NCBI GenBank assembly: GCA_003345555.1
Contig: PRDJ01000036.1
Coordinates: forward strand, 60,001-92,000
From: Candidatus Thorarchaeota archaeon
GTDB lineage: Archaea; Asgardarchaeota; Thorarchaeia; Thorarchaeales; Thorarchaeaceae
Reading direction: 5' to 3'
Length of the DNA: 32,000 bases
Part shown: piece after piece, positions 2,096 to 20,636 of the stretch
Numbering within the stretch: the first letter of the stretch is position 1
Layout: each line of letters opens with the position of its first letter
Notes under the pieces: generated by a model
The model's database searches: none
Seen by the model: the letters and a program-made list of their open reading frames with translations, nothing else
Told to the model about the DNA's origin: nothing
Program-made: the position numbers and the translations under genes

Positions 2096-3856
2096 CTACC
2101 TAGACTTTGTCCTGAAGTACAGCATTGCTATAATTAGCGACGACAGCAGGCCTAGAGCTAGCAATAAGCCCCAAAGATAACCAGGGCTCTCCTCCTGTAA
2201 CATAGACGTGACGACGACTGTCATCCATGGAGTTGTATGGACATTCTTCATGGAAGAATTATCGACCGCGATAACCCTGTAGACGACAATAGATCCTACA
2301 GCATATTCACCCAGTGAGGCCGAGTACAAATCTCTCCCTTGAGACTGCATCGTTGCGTTCACTGTATGGTTTGTGTCGAGTCCCCATTCGACTCTTATGC
2401 TGCTTATGTTATTGATGTCCCAGCAGTAGACTTGGACGGTCAAGTTGTTGGCGTAGCCTGTGGTGAATGACTGGATGACTGCGAAGCCACTAACCGTCGG
2501 GATATGCGCGTCGGCGGTCACGTTAACGGTCGTGACTGTTACAGCACTCTGGTTGAAGAAATCAGTCAACGTCATGTTGTAAACATGAATACCTACTGAG
2601 AGTCGATCTACGTTAACACTCAGGTTCTCGCCTCGCCACGTACCGTTCATTAGCACAGCACCGTCGCGAGTGAGGTTGTACGACCGCGGGTTGCTCTCAT
2701 CTGCACTCCAGTTCAGATAGTTGCCCTTGTAGCCTTCTTCATAACCAAGATAGGCCTTTCCTGTTACAACGGGAGCCCGAATGTCTTTGTAGATTGTGAC
2801 ATTCAATGAGTCAGTGTTGTTGCGTCCGTACTTATCAAAAAGCAGTATTGTGAATGTGTAGTTACCCAAGAAGATCGAATCCAAGCTTGTTGTGACGTCG
2901 TTACCTTCAGGATCGATGAAAGTCCATGAAGCCATAGTGATGTTTGTGGGGCTATGAAAAGCAGAGACATTACCGTAGCTACTGTTGGTATAGAGTGTTG
3001 TCACTCTGACTGTGTAGTTCTTGGGATTGCTGTCATACACATGCCAGACTATCTTGTGTCCCCTTGAGCCAAACTCGAAAGTGAGATCATCGGGCTGGGT
3101 AACGGTCGGAGGAGTCACGTCCAGATAGACAGTGACGTTCACCGAGCTGGTGGCATTGTGTTTGAGAGTGTCGTTGACAAACAGGGTATAGACATACCAG
3201 TGAGTTGCATTCAAGCCGTCCACGTTTATTGATATGTTCGCACCATAGAACTGTCCAGACTTTACAACCGTACGATTACTGGTGGTTTCGTTAGACGTTC
3301 TGGTTACATTGTAGAAATCGGGGTTGCTCTCCGTGATATTCCATGTCACAGTATGTCCGAAGCTACCCTCTTCGTAGCTGAAGTTGGCAGGGGCACTTAT
3401 GATGGGCGATGTTGTATCGGCAATCAGTGTTACAAGAACCTCATCCGACACGGACTCATTGCTGGTGTTGAACACCTTGCAGACAAAGACGAATAGTGCG
3501 GGCAAAGTACTCACTAGCTTCTCAGTGTAGAGGTGGTTCAGAAGCACTTCAATGGCTCCACCTGACCAGGAGCCCGATTTGTGAATCGTACCGTTTCTCG
3601 TTACAGTGTAGTTCTTTGGCGATGGGTCCGTAGAATTCCACACGATTTTCTTGTTTACTGTACCATTCTCGTAAGTCATATCAGAAGGACTGCTGATGCT
3701 GGGAGCCGCTGGAGCGAATTGACCCTCTGGCTTCAGATTGCTAACTAGAGAACTGAAGGACGATGAGACACAGGGTGACAGAACCAACCAAAACACTGTC
3801 ATGACCATGATGAATCTGCTGTGATGGCTCGAAAGCATTGGTGCACCATCCGCCAT
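2096..3856 (-). CDS. Membrane-anchored cell-surface glycoprotein with about five Ig-like beta-sandwich repeats
   Basis: N-terminal hydrophobic signal segment. Four ~95-110 aa repeats of consensus P.i..p.d.tyE.G..g..i.W...dsnP..Y.vtr.g, plus a fifth divergent domain. C-terminal TM helix (YLWGLLLALGLLSSLIIAMLYF) with a basic tail RTKSR. More than 30 N-x-S/T sequons by manual count. Confidence 0.85.
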   Translation of the reverse strand: MADGAPMLSSHHSRFIMVMTVFWLVLSPCVSSSFSSLVSNLKPEGQFAPAAPSISSPSDMTYENGTVNKKIVWNSTDPSPKNYTVTRNGTIHKSGSWSGGAIEVLLNHLYTEKLVSTLPALFVFVCKVFNTSNESVSDEVLVTLIADTTSPIISAPANFSYEEGSFGHTVTWNITESNPDFYNVTRTSNETTSNRTVVKSGQFYGANISINVDGLNATHWYVYTLFVNDTLKHNATSSVNVTVYLDVTPPTVTQPDDLTFEFGSRGHKIVWHVYDSNPKNYTVRVTTLYTNSSYGNVSAFHSPTNITMASWTFIDPEGNDVTTSLDSIFLGNYTFTILLFDKYGRNNTDSLNVTIYKDIRAPVVTGKAYLGYEEGYKGNYLNWSADESNPRSYNLTRDGAVLMNGTWRGENLSVNVDRLSVGIHVYNMTLTDFFNQSAVTVTTVNVTADAHIPTVSGFAVIQSFTTGYANNLTVQVYCWDINNISSIRVEWGLDTNHTVNATMQSQGRDLYSASLGEYAVGSIVVYRVIAVDNSSMKNVHTTPWMTVVVTSMLQEESPGYLWGLLLALGLLSSLIIAMLYFRTKSR

Positions 3857-4021: not shown

Positions 4022-4936
4022 TTGATGCCCAAGGCCATCTATGCAATATGGTGGGACCCCAACCTCGGTCCTTTTCTCGGCCGGTCATACCCAGAGAATG
4101 ATCCGCTGACGTCCGAAGAAGCTGTAGTCATCTTCATGGGGCATGGACTGCAACAAGAAGCGAAGGTCGGCTACACAAAGTTGGCAAAGGGGTTGGTGGT
4201 ATCTTATCTTGACAGCCCAAACTGTATCGCGGTACTACTGGATGAGAACGATGATCCCTCAGTTGTCGAAAGGAATCTGCTTAGACTCGTCGGCCGTATC
4301 AATTTCAACAGCAGCAAATGGGATGCGGAGATAACGCGTGCCTTTCTTCTGTTGCAGGAACTCATCGCAGAGACATCTGGCCAAGAGCTGCTTTCCAATC
4401 CCCACGTTACCAGACTTGTCGAAGACATGGCTACGGGTAGAGTGTCAGCCCTGGTTCCTAGGCACGTGCTAAGGGCAACTGCAAAATACCCAAAGGCTTC
4501 GGACTACTTGGGACCCGATGAGGAAGAGGTCTCAAGACTGCTTAAGGATCTAGAACGTGCAGGCCACTTGGTTCCGAAGACATATGGAAGAAGAGTTGAA
4601 TGCAGACAGTGTGGAGGCACCGAAGTCACTCTCGAACTCGCGTGCCCTTCGTGTGGGAGTAATGACATCTACAAAGTCTATCTGGTGTTCTGCCCCAAGT
4701 GCGGTAATAGGACTCAGACAGTACTCGTAGATGACTTGACCGAGGTACGGTGCCAACAATGCAAGCAGCCTGCAAAGGTGTCAGAACTGTCTGTCATAGA
4801 CGTGGAGCTGCTCTGCAAAGGGTGTGGGCAGGCGACAAACGATCCCAAAATTGTACTGTCTTGTGCGAATTGTGGAAAGCACATGACAAACACTGATCTT
4901 TTAGGCGGGACAGGGTTGGCATACTATCCGGCGTAG
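4022..4936 (+). CDS. uDENN/longin-like N-terminal domain + winged-helix-like segment + triple Zn-ribbon (TackOD1-like) protein
   Basis: N-terminus AIYAIWWDPNLGPFLGRSYPE fits the uDENN-type longin start (hydrophobic strand, D/H-P-x-x-G-P, Y/V-P). The middle has a helix plus EEEVSRLLKDLERAGHLV. The C-terminus has six CxxC pairs (CRQC, CPSC, CPKC, CQQC, CKGC, CANC) in the arrangement recalled for thaumarchaeal output domain 1. Confidence 0.7.
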   Translation: MMPKAIYAIWWDPNLGPFLGRSYPENDPLTSEEAVVIFMGHGLQQEAKVGYTKLAKGLVVSYLDSPNCIAVLLDENDDPSVVERNLLRLVGRINFNSSKWDAEITRAFLLLQELIAETSGQELLSNPHVTRLVEDMATGRVSALVPRHVLRATAKYPKASDYLGPDEEEVSRLLKDLERAGHLVPKTYGRRVECRQCGGTEVTLELACPSCGSNDIYKVYLVFCPKCGNRTQTVLVDDLTEVRCQQCKQPAKVSELSVIDVELLCKGCGQATNDPKIVLSCANCGKHMTNTDLLGGTGLAYYPA

Positions 4937-4973
4937 CTCAAGAGGTCAAAGCGTCAATAGATTGCCAGGCCAT

Positions 4974-6584
4974 TCATGACCTCTTTCGCTCAGTCCCCTT
5001 TTGGGGTTTTGACTTGATGGCTTTCTTCAGAGCATCACGCACGTTCGCAAGTATCTTCTCCGCCTGCGATACGCTGAGACCTTTCGCCTTTGATGACAAC
5101 CGCTGAGGTGTCTCGCCTGCGAGTTGCTGTGCCGACTCGTACCCCGCCTCTCGAAGTCTCTCCTCCATTCTTGCACCTATTCCGGGAATCTTGCGTAGTG
5201 GAAGTACCTTCTCCATATCCGGGCCAATTATGTCGTGCATGTCCTTATCGCTGAGCTCTTGCATTCCCATGATGTCAAGCTGGCTCTTTATTGACTCGAA
5301 TTCCCCTGACCCAACGTACTGTTCGACTGTCTGCTTCACAAGGCGTTCGTCGAAATCGAGACTCAACTTCTCTATTTCTATCTCCTTTCCGAGAATCTCT
5401 GGGATGGGTGCAGACCTGTACAGAGCAAGCATTGCAAGAAGAATCGCGATCTGCGTTCCGAGAACTCGCAGATCGGCAGGGGGATACCAGTTGATTACAA
5501 AGGAGACCCGAAGCGATACGGCCCAGAAGAGGGCTACATACCCAGCGAAGAAGATCCATACTGCAGCTGTTCTGCGGCTCTTGGTCCTCGGAGAACCGAT
5601 TTCGGGCCATATCAGTAGCAAGATGAGGCCCAGAAAGAAACCTTCGATGAACCTCTCGGAGACCAGCAAAGCCGCAGCATACAATTGTATGGCCTCCACA
5701 GCAATCGGACTCAGTATTGTCAGTAGACCAAACAGGAGTACTCCGGTAGTGAAGGCGCCCTTTCTCCCTCTCCGGTCAGCGATTGTTCCAGCAACAACAA
5801 TCCCTACAATCATCATAATGGGCTCATAGAGCGAAAGACCCGAGTACTGGCCCAACGATTCGTACGTGCTAAACCCGGCATCTTGGAGCACCTTGATTAT
5901 TCCTAGCTGTGTCCCAAAGTACCACAGGATGTGTCCGGCCATGAGGATTGTGACAGGGATAAAGTACGACAATGCGTTCCCTTGGACGGCAAAGCGTTTG
6001 TACTCCATTCTCCAAGGTTTGAATGCGAGACCGAGTAGTACCGCGCCAACTGCCAGAATCTCCATCACTGGGATTCCTGATGCATCCAGGTTTATTCCAT
6101 ATGAGCCAAGAGCTGAGTAGATAGCAAACAGAACCAGTGAGAAGGTCATGAAAGCCGCGATGACCCTTCCCCGATACTTGGCTACCACGGCCTTGCCGAG
6201 TTGCACAACCCAGCTGAGCAGCATAACCGCCATACCGCTGAAGACGGATACTGTGAACAGCATCTCAAGCCCGGGGGAGGATGTGCTTGGAGTTCCTGTT
6301 TGAACGAGATACATGCCAACAAACAGGGGAACAATCGCGGCAAACGTCGTAATGACATAGCCTCGTCCGATATAATCGACAATGAATCCGGCCACAAGCA
6401 AGGTCAATACTGTAGAAAGGAGACCTATCCCCAAGAACTGTAGATTCTGCCCGCCAAATGCCGGAAAGAGGGCTTGGTTGCTCAATTGAGTAATTGCATA
6501 CATGAAATAGGCCATGGTTGGAGATACTAGCGCGAAGTATGCGGCCTTCCTGAAGGGAAACTCCCTGTACTCAAGCATATCCAA
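4974..6584 (-). CDS. MFS-like multipass transporter fused to a C-terminal helix-hairpin-helix domain
   Basis: About 12 hydrophobic segments. MFS motif A appears in both halves (GFIVDYIGRG; GTIADRRGRK). The soluble tail has LRKIPGIGARMEERLREAGYESAQQLA...KGLSVSQAEKILANV, a RadA-N/HHH_5-type tandem HhH. Start is TTG 6584 or ATG 6578. Confidence 0.8.
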   Translation of the reverse strand: MDMLEYREFPFRKAAYFALVSPTMAYFMYAITQLSNQALFPAFGGQNLQFLGIGLLSTVLTLLVAGFIVDYIGRGYVITTFAAIVPLFVGMYLVQTGTPSTSSPGLEMLFTVSVFSGMAVMLLSWVVQLGKAVVAKYRGRVIAAFMTFSLVLFAIYSALGSYGINLDASGIPVMEILAVGAVLLGLAFKPWRMEYKRFAVQGNALSYFIPVTILMAGHILWYFGTQLGIIKVLQDAGFSTYESLGQYSGLSLYEPIMMIVGIVVAGTIADRRGRKGAFTTGVLLFGLLTILSPIAVEAIQLYAAALLVSERFIEGFFLGLILLLIWPEIGSPRTKSRRTAAVWIFFAGYVALFWAVSLRVSFVINWYPPADLRVLGTQIAILLAMLALYRSAPIPEILGKEIEIEKLSLDFDERLVKQTVEQYVGSGEFESIKSQLDIMGMQELSDKDMHDIIGPDMEKVLPLRKIPGIGARMEERLREAGYESAQQLAGETPQRLSSKAKGLSVSQAEKILANVRDALKKAIKSKPQKGTERKRS

Positions 6585-6737
6585 TCAGTCAATCTGCATC
6601 ATGAGCACGATATTTACGTTTCGTCAGCAGACAGAGATAGAGAGTCACTATCAGTATCCCTTCCGAAGGCACAGAAAATGCAAAACCACTACAATGCTTA
6701 AATCACCGCGAAAGCGAGGGTACAGCTGGCAGAGTCT

Positions 6738-7631
6738 ATGACAGGACCGTTGAAAGTGCAGGAGTTCATGGTTCTGACGGTAGGAGGAATACCCCTCTTC
6801 CATTATTCACCCAATGATTCGAGAAAACTCGATACTCTGCTGTCCGGATTCCTTAGTGCCGTCTCAAGCTTCGCGGCCGAGTTTGGAGAGCGTTCAATCC
6901 AGAGCCTATCCTTTGAAGGCTCGGAGATTCTCTATCAGACAGAAGCAGATGTTCTGTTCGTATTCGTAGTTGGATCTGGTGCAGAGAAGCGCGTCTTGAG
7001 GGCTGTGCTCAGAGACCTTAGTCGCAAGTTCCTCAGTAGCTACCAAGAGGAAATCAAGGCAGACGTTCTCATCGAGGATGCATTCAAGGGCTTTGCCGAC
7101 GAGGTCAAGAGATCCTTCTCGTTCTACGAAGGCGTTCTTGCAGTGGCAGCAAGTCTTAGCTCGTTTGTTGTTCCAAAGATAAACCAGGCAACATTCGATG
7201 CGGCTGTGAGCTTGATGGGGCTTTTGGATGAGCTGCATCGTGATTTTGGTATTGGTGGCAGCAGGATTGTGGATGCAATTGATGGAAAGGCCTCCATCTA
7301 CGATGTAAGTCGAATAACCGGAATTGAGATTGATCAAGTAACAGAGGTTGTCGAGTATCTCGTCATATGGGGTGTAGTCAGGGTGTTTAAGATGTGTCCA
7401 GCAATTCAGGCAAGCGACGCCAGGTTCGACATCTACCTCGATATCGTTGGTCTTCCCAAACGAGACAATCAGATTCTAATTCGAGCAAGACCTTTCTGTA
7501 AAGGCGAGAAGTCACTGGTTGAAATAAGCGAGAAAATAGGAGTCACAGCTGAAAAGCTACACGAGATACTAGGTAAGCTTGGCAATGCCGTAAGCTGGAA
7601 CTACATTGAAGTTACAAGCCTGTCACACTGA
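6738..7631 (+). CDS. Longin domain + two winged-helix domains (NPRL2/NPR2-like C-terminal half)
   Basis: The N-terminal ~115 aa show the Asgard-type longin pattern (FMVLTVGGIPLFHY...LLSGFLSAVSSFAAEF...IQSLSFEGSEILY...LFVFVV...LRDLSRKFL). wHTH1: IVDAIDGKASIYDVSRITGIEIDQVTEVVEYLVIWGVV. wHTH2: ARPFCKGEKSLVEISEKIGVTAEKLHEIL. Confidence 0.8.
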   Translation: MTGPLKVQEFMVLTVGGIPLFHYSPNDSRKLDTLLSGFLSAVSSFAAEFGERSIQSLSFEGSEILYQTEADVLFVFVVGSGAEKRVLRAVLRDLSRKFLSSYQEEIKADVLIEDAFKGFADEVKRSFSFYEGVLAVAASLSSFVVPKINQATFDAAVSLMGLLDELHRDFGIGGSRIVDAIDGKASIYDVSRITGIEIDQVTEVVEYLVIWGVVRVFKMCPAIQASDARFDIYLDIVGLPKRDNQILIRARPFCKGEKSLVEISEKIGVTAEKLHEILGKLGNAVSWNYIEVTSLSH

Positions 7632-7684
7632 ATTGCCTGACCGGATCTACAGGACTCTCGACGACGGATATGGGTCTGGTAAGG

Positions 7685-7730
7685 TATAATAGCAGTGGCA
7701 CCCAGTCACAGGACACGGCTCACCGGGGGT
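7685..7730 (+). promoter_or_regulatory. Candidate TATA box (TATAAT, 7685-7690) and RBS (GGGGGT, 7725-7730) for the gene starting at CTG 7738
   Basis: Both motifs are read directly. The RBS lies 7 nt upstream of CTG 7738. Confidence 0.45.
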
Positions 7731-7737
7731 CACATCG

Positions 7738-9033
7738 CTGGTCAAAGAAGTCCTCATCCTACGTGAAGGCGGAATTCCACTCTTTCATTACAGTGTTGGC
7801 GGCACAAAGAAGCTAGACGAACTCGTTGCAGCCTTCTTATCGGTCATGGGGTCTCTTGCAGAACGAGTAAGTGAACAGCAAATCAAAGTCGTATCGTTCG
7901 CCTCGAACAAGTTCGTCTGGCAACAAAAAGGCGACCTTCTATTCATAGCCCTGGTGTCGCAGGAAGACAGTGTAGAGATATACCGTGTGTTACTCCGGGA
8001 CCTTGCAGATCAGTTCGTAAGCACGTTCTACTCGGAACTGAAAAGTGGAACGAGTCAGTTCACTGTATTCAAAAGGTTCGCAGACACCGTTGAAGCTACA
8101 CTTCAAAGGTTCGATGGTATTCCGGGTCTGGCCCGACGCTACAAGATAGGCCTCCTGCCTGCTGACGATCTGAAGCGGCTAAGGATTGTCATGGCGCAAG
8201 CGGAGAGGCGTCCTGGCGTGATGAGAGGAGCAGTAATCACGCGTGACGGCTTTGTGCTTGCCTCCAACCTTAGGTCATACGAGATGGAAGCCTTGCTGGA
8301 TCTTCTGGATAGTCTGAGTTCCGCTCCTAAGTTAGCTGAAAGGAGCCTGACTCTTTCCCATACGAGCTTGGACCCGTTGACGCGCTTTTTCGTCACTAGG
8401 GCGGAGAATAACGTGTATTGTATATTCATCGTGAGTGCAGAGAAACCTGACAGCCAGCTCTTGAAGGGAGTTGAGCCTGTGCTCGCCGCTGTCGCTTCTC
8501 TTGACCAAACAAGCCTGAAAAGAGTTCTCCCCACATATCTAGCCGAGTCGACCGGATTCTACGAATATGATTTGGTCATACCGTTGATCCCTGTTGCAGA
8601 GGCGCTAGACAGCTCTAGCAGGTTTCTCGGCGGAATCGAGGACACCCTTCGAGCTAATGCTGTTACCGTCCTCAATATTGTAGACCAGAGGAACACAATC
8701 ACTGACATAGAAAGGAAGACGGGGTTTACGGCTGAGGAAACAACTGAAGTACTAGCCCATCTCGTCTCGAATGGCATTGTCAAAATAGCAAAGCTCTATC
8801 CCGTCATGGCTGAAAGGGACAGACGATTTGCGGCATTTCTTGAAGTCGCAGGAATGAATAATAGGGACTATCGCATAGTCGATGCCATCTGGCAGTATTG
8901 TACAGGAGCGTATTCGCTCAAGGAAGTGTCTGACGAAACAGAAATCCCCGCAGCTCGAATACTTGAGGTGCTCAAGTCGTTAGGCAAATACGTCAGATAT
9001 GAGACAGAAAGGGTGATGCAACACGTGCGCTGA
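7738..9033 (+). CDS. Longin + roadblock/LC7 + two winged-helix domain protein (paralog of 6738..7631), probable CTG start
   Basis: The frame is open upstream of the tracked ATG 7846 and encodes VKEVLILREGGIPLFHYSVGGTKKLDELVAAFLSV, clearly homologous to the paralog N-terminus. No in-frame ATG/GTG/TTG lies between the stops at 7687-7692 and 7846. Central roadblock motif: RPGVMRGAVITRDGFVLASN. C-terminal wHTH pair: VLNIVDQRNTITDIERKTG...LAHLVSNGIV and YCTGAYSLKEVSDETEI. Confidence 0.8.
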   Translation: MVKEVLILREGGIPLFHYSVGGTKKLDELVAAFLSVMGSLAERVSEQQIKVVSFASNKFVWQQKGDLLFIALVSQEDSVEIYRVLLRDLADQFVSTFYSELKSGTSQFTVFKRFADTVEATLQRFDGIPGLARRYKIGLLPADDLKRLRIVMAQAERRPGVMRGAVITRDGFVLASNLRSYEMEALLDLLDSLSSAPKLAERSLTLSHTSLDPLTRFFVTRAENNVYCIFIVSAEKPDSQLLKGVEPVLAAVASLDQTSLKRVLPTYLAESTGFYEYDLVIPLIPVAEALDSSSRFLGGIEDTLRANAVTVLNIVDQRNTITDIERKTGFTAEETTEVLAHLVSNGIVKIAKLYPVMAERDRRFAAFLEVAGMNNRDYRIVDAIWQYCTGAYSLKEVSDETEIPAARILEVLKSLGKYVRYETERVMQHVR

Positions 9034-9037
9034 CATA

Positions 9038-9787
9038 ACGTCGAAGATAGTGTGTATCCATAGCTTCAGGGGTGGAACTGGGAAGTCCAATATAGCAGCC
9101 AATCTTGCTGCAGTCGCTGCCCTCGATGGAAAGAGAGTTGCTGTCATAGACACCGATGTGGCGTCACCGGGAATACATGTAATCTTTGGACTAGGCAGGC
9201 AAAAACTGAAACACACACTTAATGACTACCTACGCGGAGAGTGTGATATCAAAGACGCCTGTATGGATATGACGAGCGAACTTGGTATCAGGCGAGGACA
9301 ACTGTTCTTGATTCCCAGTTCGATGAGCGCCACCGACATTACGCGTATTCTAAGAGAAGGTTTTGAGGTCAGCGATCTCAAGAACGGATTCACTGAAGTG
9401 ATCAAGGCAAAGAACCTCGATTACCTCATTATTGATACGCATCCGGGTCTTGACCGCGAGACTCTGCTGTCGATGGCCACGACAGACTTCCTGTTCGTGG
9501 TAGCCAGAATCGATGAGCAGGACCTACTCGGCACGGCAGCAACATTGAGCGTCGCCAGTAAATTGCAGGTGCCCGATACTCGAATTATCATCAACAAGAA
9601 GCCGAGCATCTACGAAGACAAGGCGATAATCGAGGAAGTTGAGCGGAAGTTCAAGACGAAGGTCGTTACAATCATCCCGATGCTGCAGATTCTCACCGAG
9701 GTTGGTAGTAGGTACATCGTCTGTTTGAAACATCCAGAGAGTGAATTCACTCAGCGGATGCAGGAGATCTACTCAGTCATCAAATAG
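9038..9787 (+). CDS. MinD/ParA-family (SIMIBI) ATPase
   Basis: Deviant Walker A SFRGGTGKS, VIDTDVASPGIH, and IIDTHPG Walker B/switch II. The track start is GTG 9050; in-frame ACG 9038 would restore the recalled family N-terminus MSKIV(S/C)IHSFRGGTGKSN. Confidence 0.92.
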   Translation, partial: TSKIVCIHSFRGGTGKSNIAANLAAVAALDGKRVAVIDTDVASPGIHVIFGLGRQKLKHTLNDYLRGECDIKDACMDMTSELGIRRGQLFLIPSSMSATDITRILREGFEVSDLKNGFTEVIKAKNLDYLIIDTHPGLDRETLLSMATTDFLFVVARIDEQDLLGTAATLSVASKLQVPDTRIIINKKPSIYEDKAIIEEVERKFKTKVVTIIPMLQILTEVGSRYIVCLKHPESEFTQRMQEIYSVIK

Positions 9788-10457: not shown

Positions 10458-12395
10458 ATGGTACAATCGATTTCTTCTGAAACAGCCGCCTCAGAATCTG
10501 AGGCAACTAAAGCTGTAGATAAGCTCGCAGGAATTGGTGGTCTTGTCGGAGCTGCAGCTGCTGTAATTGGGCTTGCATCATTAGCTTTAGCTGGCATGGT
10601 TCCCGCTGGTACGGTTCTTGAAATCCCTTCACTAGGGCTTGAGCTGACCCAGAACCACACGAATATCGTTATTTCAGCAGTCTTCGTTGCCATTCTGGCT
10701 CTCGGGTTGTTCCTCCAGTACAGGGGAGCAAGAGTGATTGGTTCGCTTACAGAATCAAGGGTATCAATGTTGACACTCATCACGGGAATCGTTGCCCTTG
10801 GCACGACCTCCATAATCTTGGGTGGCCTTGGTGTTCCTGCGATTGAATCTACTCCTGTCAATACCTACAGATCGTCGGTCGCATTGGGTGGTGCGGTTTT
10901 CATTATCATGTGGCAGTTCGTTTCCATTACATACGTTGACTCAAGCAAGTCTTACAGGGGTATGGCAGCCGGCATGATGAACGGATTCTTTTTCCCTGCC
11001 CTAGCCATCAATGCTGCGGCAGGTTATGCACTATTACTTGGCGGCCAGCTTGCCATGATGGTTTTCTGGTGGGGTCCAAGATCCCAGATAAGGGAGTTCG
11101 CCCGAAGCACCGATACTGCCAAGTTCGCTTTTGGTTTGTCAGGATTCCTCACGTTCCTTATTGGCGGCTTTGCGGCCTTCGGGAGTGCACTCCAGTCTGT
11201 TGAAGGTGTTGGAGTCTGGCTGCCTTGGTCGAGCGCCACTGTTGTTGGATCAAAGGTAGTATACACAACTCCGCCTTGGTTTGTTCAGGCCCTTCTCTCA
11301 TCCATGTTGTTCTGGTCATTATTAGGACCCAGATTGGGCGCACGAGAGCTGCGCGAGTCCCAGATTTCTGAAGATATTGTCAAGGGCGCTTCGAAGTACT
11401 TGATGATATTCATGGCAATCCTGGGCATCATCGCCGCCGGTCAATGCGGCACAGGCGTTGCAACACCACGAGATTCGGATTTTCTTGTTCCGGCGTGGAG
11501 CATGTTCCAGTCATTGTGTCCCGCGGCTATTATGTTCCTCATGGGATCTAGCTATATGCGTTCGACTGATGTCGTGACGGGTCTGCCTTTGGTGTTGGCT
11601 TCTGTCTATGCCTTGATAGGACCCTATGTTCTATCCAGCGTTGCTATCTTCACATGGGCACTCTTGATACTCACCCAAGGAATACTCACGATTGAGACGA
11701 AGTTCCGCAAGTTCACTCACTTCTCACAGAAGTTCCTAACCGTCATCGTGACCGTAGTACCTTCTGTACTCTTTGTCCTTTTCATGTTGGGCGCCTTTGG
11801 AAGCGGTCCTCCTGCCTTATGGCCTGCCAACAGATGGTTCAACGTCGCACTGCTTGCAGGAATTCCACCTGATGTTCAAGGACCCACGATTATAGCCACG
11901 GTTTTGAGCTGTCTGCTTGTCCGGAACGTAGCATTGTCCGGATATGCTTTCGGTCGTGGCTACAGCCGCACAGGAGTGATTGGTGGCGTCAGTTTCCTTT
12001 TTGCGTTGATGATCATAACAATCTCCGGGAATGCGGGCGTCGTTCATCAGGCCCTGACAGCTGCGGCACTTTCCTTCGGCCTGTATGCCGTAAGCTATGT
12101 GCTTGTTCTTTCACTTAACCTGAACTTGGGCGCTGATATCCTGAAAGCGGGGCATCAGTTGGAAGGTCAGTTTGTAAGAGTAGCAGCTACTGCGGGCCTC
12201 GCGGCAGGAATACTAGTTGCCGTGTTCTTGTTCTTGGTATTCTCCGGAGCCCCTTTGGCTTCGGACATATCGATTGCCATCACTCTACTCGTCATGTTGA
12301 TAGCAGGTATCGAGATCACCTGTGTGATTACTTGGATCTCTGCCGGAATCAGACTCAAGATGTTAACAGAGGGTCTCAGACTCAAGATGCCGTGA
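10458..12395 (+). CDS. Large polytopic membrane protein of unknown function (about 17-19 TM segments)
   Basis: 645-aa ORF with GAGGA RBS, almost entirely Gly/Ala/Leu-rich hydrophobic helices with short loops. No family motif recognised. Confidence 0.8.
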   Translation: MVQSISSETAASESEATKAVDKLAGIGGLVGAAAAVIGLASLALAGMVPAGTVLEIPSLGLELTQNHTNIVISAVFVAILALGLFLQYRGARVIGSLTESRVSMLTLITGIVALGTTSIILGGLGVPAIESTPVNTYRSSVALGGAVFIIMWQFVSITYVDSSKSYRGMAAGMMNGFFFPALAINAAAGYALLLGGQLAMMVFWWGPRSQIREFARSTDTAKFAFGLSGFLTFLIGGFAAFGSALQSVEGVGVWLPWSSATVVGSKVVYTTPPWFVQALLSSMLFWSLLGPRLGARELRESQISEDIVKGASKYLMIFMAILGIIAAGQCGTGVATPRDSDFLVPAWSMFQSLCPAAIMFLMGSSYMRSTDVVTGLPLVLASVYALIGPYVLSSVAIFTWALLILTQGILTIETKFRKFTHFSQKFLTVIVTVVPSVLFVLFMLGAFGSGPPALWPANRWFNVALLAGIPPDVQGPTIIATVLSCLLVRNVALSGYAFGRGYSRTGVIGGVSFLFALMIITISGNAGVVHQALTAAALSFGLYAVSYVLVLSLNLNLGADILKAGHQLEGQFVRVAATAGLAAGILVAVFLFLVFSGAPLASDISIAITLLVMLIAGIEITCVITWISAGIRLKMLTEGLRLKMP

Positions 12396-13696: not shown

Positions 13697-14617
13697 ATGT
13701 CTCGGAGCGACATCTTCAGCAAATACGCACAAATGTACCAGAAAACGAGGTCACGTGAGATTGTTCCTGAAGGAGCCTTTGTCAGGCAGCTCACCGAGAT
13801 TCCCCGCGTGGGTCTTGATATCGGTCTTTTTTTCAAGACTCAAAAGGCCGAACAACCTGCACAGGTCTACATAGGCGAACCTCTGCCGCGAGAGTTAGCC
13901 CGCAATGAGGGCTTCTTGGAATCAGAAAGAAGCACCTACTTCAGCAAGACACTCCTCTCCGGGTTTCGATCGCTCGAGTATCTCAAGATAGCCCTTTCCG
14001 CCCGACGTGTCTTGCACAAGAAAGACGAGCGAGTTGAGTTCTTGAAGAAGTGTCAGAGCATCATTGACCTTCTCGTTAGAAAAGCGAGAAACGTTATACT
14101 TGCCGGCGACTTCTCACCATTCACTTTCGACACAAAAGTGAAGACTCTGGATTACTTCCTGTCAACCGACCTCGGGATGGATGAGGTTTCGGTCGAAGCC
14201 GCGGCGATACCTTTCACTATCGCTAGCCCGCAGTACCTCATGCTTACGAACAGCGAAATAATAGTGGTTGGAGAAGAGGCCCAAGTTCCTCACGGGGTGT
14301 TCTATTTCGTGGGCGGCATAGGCTACACTTTCGACAAGAAGGTGGGAGCCGTAAGCAAGGAACGGTTGTTCAAGCCGACCGGTGATCTCTCCGCTCAAGG
14401 AATAGACAATGCGTACGTTGAGAGAATGATATCTCGGGTAACAGAGGATTTCCAGACGCAGATTCACTCCATCATCTTCTCAGACATCTGGAAGAAAAGC
14501 AGTGCGAAGCCTGTCGGGGTGAACTTCGACGGAGACATGTTGGTCAAGGCAGAACAAAGCAGTGATTTGTGGACGGGTGTTTTCGAGGTGTATCTAAGGC
14601 CGCCAAGGATATCATGA
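13697..14617 (+). CDS. Hypothetical soluble protein (306 aa)
   Basis: Long ORF with GGGAG RBS and normal composition; no competing long ORF. No family recognised. Confidence 0.75.
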   Translation: MSRSDIFSKYAQMYQKTRSREIVPEGAFVRQLTEIPRVGLDIGLFFKTQKAEQPAQVYIGEPLPRELARNEGFLESERSTYFSKTLLSGFRSLEYLKIALSARRVLHKKDERVEFLKKCQSIIDLLVRKARNVILAGDFSPFTFDTKVKTLDYFLSTDLGMDEVSVEAAAIPFTIASPQYLMLTNSEIIVVGEEAQVPHGVFYFVGGIGYTFDKKVGAVSKERLFKPTGDLSAQGIDNAYVERMISRVTEDFQTQIHSIIFSDIWKKSSAKPVGVNFDGDMLVKAEQSSDLWTGVFEVYLRPPRIS

Positions 14618-14788
14618 AGGCCCAAGGGGTAGGAGCATAGCCAAGCAGACCAAGCGTTTGAAGCCTATCCTCGAAGGAGAAACCAGTTTGCCGAGCGTGG
14701 CAGGGCAATCAAGGGATGAGAGGGGTTGCGTTTCGTACAAGTATAAGATAAATGGCAGTTCTGCAACCTATAGGACCGGCAGATACAG

Positions 14789-15058
14789 ATGTTGCAGGGC
14801 CTTCCTCCAGCGGTATACGAGATTCTTGCTATCTTCATAATCATCATCGCGCTTGTTTTCTGTTGCAGTTGTTGCTGTCGAAGAAGACAGAAGGTCGTGA
14901 AGGAAGTACACTATGTGGAAAGGCCTTCTGAAACTCCAGGCACGAGGGTCGTAGAAACCCAGAGGGTCATAGAGAAGGTCTTGGTAGTGTGTCCGTTCTG
15001 TGGTGCCAAGAACGAACAGGGGATGACCATCTGCAAGAATTGCGGCGCTAAAATCTGA
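14789..15058 (+). CDS. Small single-TM protein with juxtamembrane Cys string and C-terminal double Zn ribbon
   Basis: ILAIFIIIIALVF-CCSCCC-RRRQK, a charged linker, then CPFCGAKNEQGMTICKNCGAKI (zinc_ribbon_2-type). Confidence 0.8.
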   Translation: MLQGLPPAVYEILAIFIIIIALVFCCSCCCRRRQKVVKEVHYVERPSETPGTRVVETQRVIEKVLVVCPFCGAKNEQGMTICKNCGAKI

Positions 15059-15203
15059 GAAGAAGAGAGTATGTCTCGTTCTTCGTCTCACGTTGTGCGA
15101 CCCCACTCAATGCGATGCTCATGAAATAGCCATCAAGTGACAAAGCGGCCATCCGTCCTCCGCAACCAGCAAGCAGAATACGTGGAACTCGCCACTGTCC
15201 AGA

Positions 15204-16406
15204 TTGAACACGATGTACGATGTTGCCATAGTAGGCGCAGGACCCGCCGGATCAACAGCTGCAAGGTACCTGGCCAAGCTGGGCTTCAGTACTTGTCTCA
15301 TTGACAAGTGTGGATTTCCCAGAGACAAACCGTGCGGCGGGGGCTTCTCTCCTCAGCTGCTCGAAGAATTCAGCTACCTGAAAGCTAGAGAAGACAGCTT
15401 TGCTGTGAGTATCTCGAAGACAGGCGTCCTTCATCCCAGGGGTCGGCTGGTCGCTCTCAGAGGTCGAGCAGATATGATGATGACACTGAGAGAGCAATTC
15501 GATAACGCGTTGCTCAATGAAGCCATCGATTGTGGGGCCCAGCCACTGACTTCCTGTAGGGTCAAGTCTGTTCAAGCCAGCAAAGAGAAGGTACTAGTTC
15601 ATACTTCTGAGGGAAAGGTTGTCGAGACAAAGGCCATTGTCGGCGCCGACGGAGTCAACAGCACCGTTGCCCGGGAGACAGGTCTCAACGTACGATGGCC
15701 CGCGGGATCGTTGACCGCGTGCAAAGTCATGGAGATTCCTGTCAATGAGTCGCGCATTACAGACTACTATGGCGAGGACAGGGAGTATCATTTCTTTGCG
15801 AACTTCGGAGGTCGTCCCGGCTATGGCTGGCTGTTTCCAAAAATCAATACTGTCAATGTGGGACTAGGTATTGTGACTAATGCCGGCGGAAGTCTGGTAG
15901 AACAGTTCTCTCTGTTTGTCAAGATGCTTCAGCATGAAGGACTTCTCATTCCTAGCGCCGAACCAGACTGTGCAAGGGGAGCTCTGGTTCCTACTGCGGG
16001 TCCAGTACCATGCACGATAGTAGACCGCGCACTTCTGGTAGGTGACTCTGCAGGCATGGTTAGTCCTTTGACTGGTGGAGGGATAGCCTATGCCATGCGT
16101 GCAGGCAAGTTTGCTGCCATTGCCCTCGCAGGGGCCCTAGAGCGGGAAGATCTCCGCGCCAAGTCACTTCTAACATATCAGAGAGCTTGGCAGCACAGCT
16201 TTGGACGTGATATGAAGCGTCAGCTGATTGCCCAGAAGCTTTTCACGAGCTCGATTGCCAATACCCTGTTTGAGATAGGCCATCGCGATTTGAAACTACA
16301 AGATATGGTAGCGCATCTGATGGCATCTGGCTCGACCAGCGCGGCCACTGCGGCAAGGATCGTTGGCAGGGTAGTATGGGTTTGTCTTAGGGAAGTTCTT
16401 CACTAG
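15204..16406 (+). CDS. Geranylgeranyl reductase family FAD-dependent oxidoreductase (DGGR-like)
   Basis: DVAIVGAGPAGSTAA, FPRDKPCGGG, REQFDNALLNEA, IVGADGVNS.VAR, GYGWLFPK...VNVGLG, LLVGDSAGMVSPLTGGGIAYAMRAG. Confidence 0.92.
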   Translation: MNTMYDVAIVGAGPAGSTAARYLAKLGFSTCLIDKCGFPRDKPCGGGFSPQLLEEFSYLKAREDSFAVSISKTGVLHPRGRLVALRGRADMMMTLREQFDNALLNEAIDCGAQPLTSCRVKSVQASKEKVLVHTSEGKVVETKAIVGADGVNSTVARETGLNVRWPAGSLTACKVMEIPVNESRITDYYGEDREYHFFANFGGRPGYGWLFPKINTVNVGLGIVTNAGGSLVEQFSLFVKMLQHEGLLIPSAEPDCARGALVPTAGPVPCTIVDRALLVGDSAGMVSPLTGGGIAYAMRAGKFAAIALAGALEREDLRAKSLLTYQRAWQHSFGRDMKRQLIAQKLFTSSIANTLFEIGHRDLKLQDMVAHLMASGSTSAATAARIVGRVVWVCLREVLH

Positions 16407-19403: not shown

Positions 19404-20636
19404 GTGACTCTCTTGCCGGGTTACGTCGAGGTCCGTGATAAGGGCATTCTAAGAAAGAAGATACCGACAAGCAACAGATCATTTGAAAACGTGTGCTCCG
19501 ATCTTGAGCGCTTCTTCAAGGACGCAGGAAAGAAGCTGCCGCCCGGCGTTGTAAGAGAAGCTCTACAGAGAATAGGTGTTCCTCAGGTTAAGATGATAAT
19601 CTCACAGGCGGAGCCACTAGAAGAATCACAAGCAAAGGTTGTCAAGGAGATTTCAGCCTCGGTTGAGGCTAGGAAGAAATCAAAGAGAAAGCCGAAGGTA
19701 GCCAAGAGTACAAGTAAGACAGAGGAAGTTCCTGAAGCGGCCAAGAAAGAACCAGCAGGTGACATATCTGGCATTGAGTATCACGACGTTGAAGAAGCTT
19801 TGAGCGTAGTGGAATCCCTGAGTGATTCGTTTCTCTCATCCAAGTCCAAGGATGCATCCCGTGCAACTCCTGACAAGGGTAAAATCAGTATCGAAGTCGA
19901 GGGAACCGAAGAGATAGTCGGTGCTCCCCGCTTGCGGGCGGCCATGCCAGAACAAGTGCCGCATGCGATCAAGGCCACTGCTGAACAGTTTCCGCCCTCA
20001 CCGACGGAGTCCGGCAGACCCAAGGAGGCGGCTCAGTCTCCCACACGCATACCCAAGACGCAGGTGATTGCAAAGGCCCTGATTCTGGGGGAAGAAGGCG
20101 TAGGCAAGTCATCATTGATAGCAAAGGGAGGCCTCAAGCCGCTCGAGTCAAGCCCTGAGGCAGAGAAGAGACCGTATGTCACGGAGAAAGTGATTGAGGT
20201 TGACAACTACAGAGTCAGGCTGCAGGCATGGCTATTTGACGCAGCTTCGGCCTCAAGAGTGACAAGAAAGGCGTTCTATGAAGATACTGGTCTCGTCATC
20301 ATTGTGTATAGCACATCAGACCGTTGGTCATTCGAGAGCATTGATTTCTGGCTCAAGGAGAGCATATCGGCCTCTGGGATACGACCTCCTGTGGTTATCG
20401 TCGGGAACAAGACCGACGTTCGAGCCAACTCACCCCTCGTGGACAGGGAGCCTCCGGTATCACCAGAAGAGGGATTGAAGTTGGCACATGAAATAGCCTC
20501 GAAGCTCGCATCGGGGCAGAAGACTCATCCAGTAGCCTTCATTGAGACCTCGTGCCTCACTGGCCAAGGTGTTGAGGACCTGTTTAGGATGGCTGCAGAG
20601 CTTTTCGTCAAGTCAATCAATCGACCGAAAGCATAG
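19404..20636 (+). CDS. Rab/Ras-like small GTPase domain with degenerate switch motifs and ~215-aa N-terminal extension
   Basis: G1 GEEGVGKS, G4 VIVGNKTD and G5 FIETSCLTG are present. G3 reads AWLFDAAS instead of WDTAG. Rab-like spacing includes IIVYSTSDRWSFESIDFWLKE. The N-terminal half is mostly K/E/S/P/A-rich. Confidence 0.85.
   Translation: MTLLPGYVEVRDKGILRKKIPTSNRSFENVCSDLERFFKDAGKKLPPGVVREALQRIGVPQVKMIISQAEPLEESQAKVVKEISASVEARKKSKRKPKVAKSTSKTEEVPEAAKKEPAGDISGIEYHDVEEALSVVESLSDSFLSSKSKDASRATPDKGKISIEVEGTEEIVGAPRLRAAMPEQVPHAIKATAEQFPPSPTESGRPKEAAQSPTRIPKTQVIAKALILGEEGVGKSSLIAKGGLKPLESSPEAEKRPYVTEKVIEVDNYRVRLQAWLFDAASASRVTRKAFYEDTGLVIIVYSTSDRWSFESIDFWLKESISASGIRPPVVIVGNKTDVRANSPLVDREPPVSPEEGLKLAHEIASKLASGQKTHPVAFIETSCLTGQGVEDLFRMAAELFVKSINRPKA

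Follow-up and report, generated by a model that had tools for sequence, protein, structure and literature searches.

Longin and roadblock folds serve as dimeric platforms for NTPase switches, as in MglB, Ragulator, the C-terminal domains of the Rag GTPases, Mon1-Ccz1 and NPRL2/3. Among prokaryotic systems, MglB-MglA and the actinobacterial conservons (CvnA-D) combine a roadblock protein and a P-loop NTPase switch with a membrane sensor and a helix-turn-helix-like protein. NPRL2 and NPRL3 consist of an N-terminal longin domain followed by two or more winged helices (PMC3747258), and the longins of the GTPase-activating protein (GAP) type, found in NPRL2, FLCN, SMCR8 and C9orf72, have a catalytic Arg finger and a GP motif that precedes the second strand (PMC12290439). 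Finding the partners of Asgard longin and roadblock proteins is difficult because, at least in the cultured archaeon MK-D1, their genes seldom lie beside that of an NTPase (PMC10933270). Here we analyse a 32,000-nucleotide stretch of a Candidatus Thorarchaeota archaeon genome (contig PRDJ01000036.1, positions 60,001 to 92,000; hereafter the window), in which five neighbouring genes, A to E (Table 1), encode longin, roadblock and winged-helix proteins, an MFS-like membrane protein and a MinD/ParA-type ATPase. Conserved adjacency links one of them, D, to a particular NTPase (E) and to a particular membrane protein (B), giving a defined trio, for which MglA-MglB or an actinobacterial conservon would be the nearest prokaryotic analogy in logic.

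The original prediction for this locus took all five genes for one signalling module and proposed synteny as a check. The distribution of the genes was searched in 250 other Asgard genomes belonging to 28 families (f1 and f2, Thorarchaeota; f12, Hermodarchaeota). The order A-B-C-D-E is kept in nearly every genus of the Thorarchaeota family f1, and so are the genes on both sides of it, from the gene at 264 through the gene at 13697, including those for an F420 dehydrogenase subunit, a THEP1-type NTPase, an Ig-like protein, a glycerophosphodiester phosphodiesterase (GDPD) and a geranylgeranyl reductase-like protein. Since this block also holds unrelated housekeeping genes, synteny at the family level reflects inherited order and cannot serve to delimit a module. 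The comparison with Hermodarchaeota comprised 13 loci from two genera of family f12, at identities of ~52% for E, ~29% for D and ~25% for B. In 12 of the 13 loci, B is divergent from D and E directly follows D; the other 12 window genes that were tested are all absent from these 12 loci, and the flanking genes are unrelated (a restriction-modification methylase, TFB, URO-D). Synteny of the five genes thus holds across the Thorarchaeota family, but Hermodarchaeota keep only B, D and E, and the five-gene module is reduced accordingly.

D and E are adjacent in nearly all of the Thorarchaeota genomes examined, ~40 from 14 genera, with gaps that range from an overlap to ~110 nt. The association of longin/roadblock genes with a MinD-like ATPase, as had been predicted, therefore goes beyond inherited order, being found in both Thorarchaeota and Hermodarchaeota, and the transporter gene is divergent from the longin and ATPase genes in both. 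B was found in 53 of 59 genomes of f1, in the single genome of f2 and in 16 of 19 genomes of f12, and in none of the other 25 families. The corresponding counts are 44 of 59, one of one and 17 of 19 for D, and 50 of 59, one of one and 17 of 19 for E, which was also found in the only genome of f28; no other family has either gene. B, D and E are common to the same three of the 28 families, with E alone in a fourth.

We favour, tentatively and with slightly less than even confidence, the reading that B, D and E form a functional unit of three genes rather than five, in which D partners E and B acts as an anchor or a sensor. If the three genes were instead neighbours by descent, each working alone, the order shared by Thorarchaeota and Hermodarchaeota, which are related Asgard lineages, could be a remnant, and exceptions to the adjacency do exist (genomes G017, G018 and G022 and families f2 and f28). 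We consider this improbable: at the identities of D and B given above all other tested neighbours have been replaced, and yet the order and orientation of the trio are kept in all 12 Hermodarchaeota loci that hold D; the D stop and the E start abut or overlap in many Thorarchaeota loci; and the distributions of the three genes coincide.

Table 1. Genes A to E and the intergenic region between B and C (positions in the window)
Feature	Position	Strand	Description
Gene A	4025-4936	+	Longin (residues 1-118), winged helix (~157-207), TackOD1 triple zinc ribbon
Gene B	4974-6578	-	12-helix MFS-like protein, acidic linker, basic helix-hairpin-helix (HhH) tail (residues 459-520)
B/C divergent promoter region (putative)	6579-6737		159 nt; BRE/TATA-like elements; promoter function inferred
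Gene C	6738-7631	+	Longin, two winged helices; roadblock-less paralogue of D
Gene D	7738-9033	+	Longin (residues 1-128), roadblock (136-260), two winged helices (~295-425); CTG start
Gene E	9035-9787	+	Divergent MinD/ParA-type ATPase

All five open reading frames (ORFs) lie where the original prediction had placed them, with the orientations and the divergent B/C region that it described. Its count of three longins (in A, C and D) and one roadblock (in D) agrees with ours, while the winged helices number five rather than four, the additional one being in A. The start codons are probably ATG 4025 for A (alternative 4022) and ATG 6578 for B (alternative 6584).

The ATPase assignment of E holds: the Pfam models AAA_31, CbiA and ParA all match above their cut-offs. 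The scores lie far below the MinD family cut-offs, at 83.1 bits for the archaeal NCBIfam model minD_arch (TIGR01969, cut-off 201.75) and 52 bits for the bacterial one (TIGR01968, cut-off 212.9). The nearest solved structure is MinD-1 of A. fulgidus (1.3e-16), where the alignment stops at residue 230 of the 263 in the chain; the nearest solved relatives comprise archaeal and bacterial MinD, Mrp/Nbp35-type proteins and FleN (8e-10). In 25 orthologues, the GKS, DTD and DTHPG motifs, corresponding to the P-loop Lys, the switch I Asp and the Walker B Asp, are invariant. The Walker A motif, HSFRGGTGKS, has an Arg where the signature Lys would be expected (xKGGxGK[ST]), with F-R-G-G-T-G-K-S invariant in 25 of the 25, and the protein ends at the last helix of the fold, with no C-terminal amphipathic membrane-targeting helix. 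By these features E classifies as a divergent SIMIBI P-loop ATPase of the MinD/ParA family. Like MinD/MinE, ParA/ParB and FleN/FleQ, the locus has a MinD/ParA-family ATPase encoded beside what would be a dedicated partner; unlike them, the ATPase has the Arg substitution, lacks the membrane-targeting helix and falls far below the MinD cut-offs, and D bears no likeness to MinE, ParB or FleQ. Searching the locus with anti-phage defence models gave only a weak P-loop match, to E.

The AlphaFold2 (AF2) model of D (pLDDT 77) consists of the longin, the roadblock and two winged-helix units of the helix-helix-helix-strand-strand type. In this predicted model, the longin matches that of VAMP7 with a Z score of 15.1, and the roadblock, which has the ~120-residue alpha-beta-alpha sandwich of the roadblock/LC7 fold, matches MglB (Z 12.5, rmsd 3.0, 121 residues aligned) and Roadblock3 of the Asgard archaeon Prometheoarchaeum (Z 12.3). 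Foldseek comparison of D with the PDB gave Fuzzy/Inturned, Mon1/Ccz1 and NPRL3 among the top matches (6e-9 to 7e-8), NPRL2 aligned co-linearly with the whole length of D (1.9e-7), and MON1 was found among the Swiss-Prot models (1.3e-10). The family of D comprises 186 protein clusters in a collection of 5.8 billion clusters, and among the matches listed every named one is a "hypothetical protein".

The best fold matches of the longin-roadblock half of D are thus the tri-longin Rab guanine nucleotide exchange factors (Mon1-Ccz1, Fuzzy-Inturned and HPS1-HPS4; PDB matches at 6e-9 to 2e-8), which work as heterodimers of paralogues. In contrast to these, D has only two such domains, with two winged helices in the third position, and the conserved B-D-E set contains no gene for a Rab-like partner. 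The likeness to MglB-MglA and the conservons lies in the MglB-type roadblock; the differences are that E is a SIMIBI-class MinD/ParA ATPase and not a Ras-like GTPase, that D fuses roadblock, longin and winged helices in one protein, and that B is MFS-like, whereas the sensor of the conservons is histidine-kinase-like.

C and D are paralogues aligned by hhalign with a probability of 100% (E 1.4e-59) and a gap of ~140 residues where D has its roadblock. C is present in 23 of 24 other f1 genomes searched and was not found in the Hermodarchaeota loci read; it is therefore a Thorarchaeota-specific duplicate of D without the roadblock. In genus g3, D was not found in most genomes, several of them still with B and E. 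The one g3 locus read (L015, 8022-9773) lacks D, and 120 nt separate C from E. Since C stands directly before E where D is missing, the longin and winged-helix core may be the constant partner of E. The only Pfam longin model that touches C and D is Fuz_longin_1 (weakly, 9.5e-5 for C). The longins of both have G-(I/V/L)-P in place of GP, and no Arg in the longin domain is invariant. The winged-helix pair is acidic in C and neutral in D (mean net charges of -7.5 and -1.2), and the best-conserved stretch is the linker between the two winged helices and not a recognition helix.

The description of B as a transporter with a DNA-binding-type tail stands in part: hydropathy gives ~12 hydrophobic segments and the tail matches Pfam HHH_5 (5e-8), whereas profile support for MFS membership is weak, with an NCBIfam match at 1.6e-5 (24 bits) and no Pfam MFS match. 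MFS proteins are the neighbours of B in language-model space. The C-terminal half contains the motif-A-like sequence GTIADRRGRK with invariant D270 and R274, the motif in the N-terminal half is degenerate, and E310, R311 and E314 are invariant intramembrane residues. The HhH tail resembles the N-terminus of RadA, lies on the predicted cytoplasmic side and is basic, the last 60 residues having a net charge of +1 to +11; the Hermodarchaeota homologue keeps it (HHH_5, 1.4e-9).

Copies of this tail, 35-45% identical, also end other Thorarchaeota ORFs of ~290 and ~770-860 residues (for example G205:C47:20098-20349 and G012:C4:69550-69768), so the B-type tail appears to be a mobile module in the Thorarchaeota lineage.

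Some properties of E and B would also suit a ParA-type positioning or tethering system, with E on the nucleoid, D as a stimulating adaptor and the HhH tail of B tying DNA or cargo to the membrane. E is a MinD/ParA-family protein with no membrane-targeting helix, B has its basic RadA-N-terminal-like domain on the predicted cytoplasmic side, and the window genes that were scanned include neither a MinC/MinE nor a ParB gene. However, neither centromere-like repeats nor a ParB-type partner was seen, the winged helices of D are not basic, an Arg at the position of the signature Lys is unusual for ParA-type ATPases, and the genes are present as one chromosomal copy among housekeeping genes and not on a mobile element. 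We therefore regard such a system as rather improbable.

A second alternative concerns the spacer between B and C. It contains, on the minus strand, a transcription factor B recognition element (BRE) plus TATA-like element for B (CGAAACGTAAATAT, 6610-6623, 32-45 nt before the B ATG) and, for C, the TATA-like sequence GCTTAAATC, a CTTAAA-type box, at 6696-6704, ~35 nt before the gene. Among 17 Thorarchaeota loci, ATA(T/A)G-5 nt-TTTCG is kept in at least 80%, and a CTTAAA-type box lies ~35-40 nt before C in most. TATAAT is found ~50 nt before the CTG of D, and E begins 1-16 nt after the D stop codon. This arrangement would fit separate promoters for B, C and D-E, a single transcript serving for the translation of both D and E. 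The divergent layout of regulator and transporter genes, with a 159-nt shared region carrying conserved BRE/TATA-like elements, would also suit local transcriptional control, in which C and D, as winged-helix factors sensing a ligand or a partner, regulate B, and E is a co-regulator like FleN, the MinD-like co-regulator of FleQ. Two further observations agree with this: FleN is among the solved relatives of E, and the winged helices of C and D best match archaeal regulators of the TrmB, MarR and Lrp types (weak Pfam matches to TrmB, 2.9e-5, and HTH_47; PDB profiles, E 0.01-0.05). Against it stand the lack of significance of these matches to regulators, the acidic or neutral charge of the winged-helix pairs and the conservation of the linker in preference to the recognition helix. 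Moreover, besides the promoter-like elements, no conserved palindrome stands out in the B/C intergenic alignment. On balance, transcriptional control is an unlikely explanation.

Neither D nor E has a canonical start codon at the expected place. The frame of D is open from 7693 and contains no ATG, GTG or TTG until 7846. Initiation at 7846, the first canonical codon, would remove two longin strands, and the translation of 7741-7845 has its counterpart in the first two longin strands of C. In ~20 homologues of D, the start codon lies immediately 5' of a conserved VKE(I/V) motif, and the position shared with these homologues is occupied here by CTG 7738, with GGGGGT 7 nt upstream. E has ATA 9035 and ACG 9038 where its homologues have Met, and a GTG only at 9050. 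Despite the missing canonical starts (7681-7848 and 9031-9052), both ORFs are otherwise intact and well conserved.

How a three-gene unit of B, D and E might work can be proposed from the features of its proteins. E would be an ATP-dependent dimerisation switch that has no membrane-targeting helix of its own. The residue at the signature Lys position of MinD/ParA ATPases reaches across the dimer, and the invariant Arg of E is placed where this Lys would cross. The first half of D, E's one constant neighbour, is built of two folds that act as NTPase platforms, and on this ground we propose that D binds E. D would thus be a dedicated partner of E, its longin-roadblock pair forming a dimeric platform as for small GTPases, and, as a homodimer or with C in Thorarchaeota, it could set the nucleotide cycle of E or hold one of its states. 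With the winged helices of C and D being acidic or neutral and the tail of B basic, protein contacts rather than DNA binding are favoured for the former, while the tail could bind nucleic acid or an acidic partner. B would be a membrane anchor or sensor, its tail recruiting either the D-E complex or nucleic acid. In Thorarchaeota, the roadblock-less duplicate C, which came to lie between B and D, probably forms a pair with D or can stand in for it. The D-E and B-D contacts, the regulation of ATP hydrolysis and the cellular output are all parts of this proposal; the domain make-up, the adjacency and the common distribution are observed. A prediction of the D-E complex with both proteins given as alignments scored 0.01 against a mark of 0.32 and weighs neither for nor against binding.

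Several points weigh against a B-D-E unit. The contact between D and E is a proposal, and no longin or roadblock protein is known to regulate a SIMIBI-class ATPase, nor was one found in the literature searched. In family f2, the B homologue lies on another contig. The E orthologue of f28 (48% identity; L046, 2411-5260) is preceded not by D but by a TPR protein and a 137-residue ORF, which shows no likeness to the D profile and no family match. D and E are split in three Thorarchaeota genomes, by 1.2 kb, by 3.3 kb and onto different contigs. There are only two or three independent lineages (f1/f2 of Thorarchaeota and f12 of Hermodarchaeota), which makes the co-occurrence statistics weak. Finally, with no canonical start codon where the homologues of D and of E begin, the expression of these two genes in the present genome is uncertain.

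A general link between longin proteins and MinD across Asgard archaea was also considered and rejected, as no MinD-like gene, recognised by [KR]GGxGK[ST], lies within ~6 kb of the best relatives of the C/D longins in 12 other Asgard genomes.

Gene A differs from the B-D-E set in both its distribution and its make-up. The predicted triple zinc ribbon is clearly present: Pfam TackOD1 (PF18551) matches at 6.9e-18 (65.3 bits, cut-off 32), and 12 Cys residues, forming six CxxC pairs in three CxxC...CxxC sets, are invariant in 18 orthologues. The AF2 model (pLDDT 87) has the longin fold, then the winged helix, then the beta-rich zinc ribbons. Foldseek returned no match to the PDB at E<=0.001, and the likeness of the longin came from a second aligner, in which human NPRL2 ranks top (VIA Z 10.7, rmsd 2.9, 116 residues aligned), followed by FNIP2, yeast Npr2 and a Lokiarchaeota longin (Z 9.8-10.0), the matches to NPRL2, Npr2 and FNIP2 longins ranging over Z 9.7-10.7 in all, with generic adaptin and SNARE longins within one Z unit. 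The same 18 orthologues share an invariant W-W-D-x-x-L-G-P-x-x-G-R motif at the N-terminus, and residues 10-21 (DNA 4025-4100) have the W-D-x3-G-P spacing of W33-D34 and G38-P39 in C9orf72, residues which are essential in that protein, the GP motif being specific to longins of the GAP type (PMC12290439). R21, R84 and R88 of A are candidates for a possible Arg finger. An NPRL2/FLCN-type GP-motif longin therefore describes the N-terminal domain better than the predicted uDENN, for which DENND1 gives a Z of only 8.4-8.6.

The winged helix and TackOD1 domains of A, with the same multi-CxxC pattern, correspond to the output half of the REC-wHTH-TackOD1 response regulators described, together with TackOD1 itself, by Galperin et al. 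2018 (PMC5847659), except that the GP-motif longin takes the place of the receiver domain. As Liu et al. (bioRxiv 10.1101/2020.10.19.343400) reported NPRL2-like longins fused to domains of the two-component type, the architecture of A is probably already catalogued. Close relatives of A occur in family f1 only; distant ones (20-25% identity) in other genomes sit on other contigs and not near D-E, and A and B are separated by ~1 kb in many Thorarchaeota loci. A check of A's membership by co-loss was uninformative, because a 97%-complete genome of the family without A-E also lacks orthologues of the flanking genes 2096-3856 and 10458-12395. A is thus not a part of the module, as had been supposed, but a longin/TackOD1 signalling protein in its own right that only happens to lie beside the B-D-E set.

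These data also bear on the original prediction as a whole, a five-gene nutrient sensor of proto-GATOR/Ragulator type, in which a C-D heterodimer acts on the ATPase, B is the sensor and A the output. Given that NPRL2/3 have a longin followed by winged helices, the architecture of C is NPRL2-like, and C and D share with NPRL2/NPRL3 of GATOR1 both this layout (PMC3747258) and an origin of the pair by duplication. The alignment of NPRL2 along the whole of D, the top rank of NPRL2 for the longin of A with its GP motif (PMC12290439) and the synteny of the five genes across the Thorarchaeota family point in the same direction. On the other hand, C and D have G-x-P and no invariant longin Arg, D has an inserted roadblock, its longin-roadblock half resembles MON1/Fuzzy at least as well, and the neighbour of C and D is a MinD-type ATPase rather than a Rag GTPase or DEPDC5. 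A is unlinked outside one family and often separated from B by other DNA, and the family-level block contains unrelated genes as well. The ancestral state is a single D, so no heterodimer is required. Membership of C and D in the NPRL2 family by sequence was rejected: the Pfam NPR2 model (PF06218) matches nothing in the whole genome at E<=1, and PDB profile searches reached NPRL2 only at a non-significant E of 0.31 with the C profile and NPRL2/NPRL3 at 1.5 with the pooled winged-helix profile. The kinship of the supposed NPRL2-like pair is thus architectural only, with C a lineage-specific duplicate; the conserved set contains no Rag-type GTPase, DEPDC5 or Ragulator-like partner, and nothing at the locus points to nutrient sensing. 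We consider the GATOR-like nutrient sensor highly improbable.

The suspicion that NPRL2-like Asgard proteins had already been catalogued proved right. Liu et al. report a Thorarchaeota family with a longin and an NPRL2-type C-terminal domain "in most Thor MAGs" (metagenome-assembled genomes), which probably includes C and/or D, and make no mention of a MinD or transporter neighbourhood (bioRxiv 10.1101/2020.10.19.343400). Such neighbours are likewise not mentioned by Galperin et al. (PMC5847659) or in the other literature searched, and no description of the B-D-E trio was found in the literature on MinD with roadblock or longin proteins in archaea, within an incomplete coverage. The individual proteins are thus not new, and it is the B-D-E neighbourhood for which no description was found.

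The broader idea that longin/roadblock platforms, known until now only as partners of Ras-like small GTPases, here regulate a SIMIBI MinD/ParA ATPase coupled to a transporter-like membrane protein is possible but doubtful. If true, the logic of platform plus NTPase switch seen in Ragulator, GATOR, Mon1-Ccz1 and MglB would not be confined to small GTPases, and Asgard archaea would have been recombining it with other switches. Control of E by D would widen the partner range of "GTPase platform" domains to another class of NTPases, which bears on the assembly of the eukaryotic Rag and Rab regulatory complexes out of archaeal components. Should D have no control over E, the locus would still be a clean case of family-level synteny making unrelated neighbours look like a module.

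Elsewhere in the window, the gene at 19404-20636 encodes a small GTPase domain of the Ras/Roc type (residues 224-399) after an N-terminal extension of ~220 residues that matches no Pfam model; in Hermodarchaeota it does not lie close to the B-D-E set. In the closest relative, a genome of the same genus (G003, locus L013), E and the homologues of the genes at 10458, 1569 and 264 each appear as two tblastn pieces in different frames (6599-7332, 4093-6028, 14291-14808 and 14938-16117), which looks like the result of indel errors in the assembly rather than biology. The flanking genes at 2096-3856 and 10458-12395, which encode an Ig/PKD-like protein of 586 residues and a 645-residue protein with no Pfam match, respectively, travel with the block in the Thorarchaeota family.

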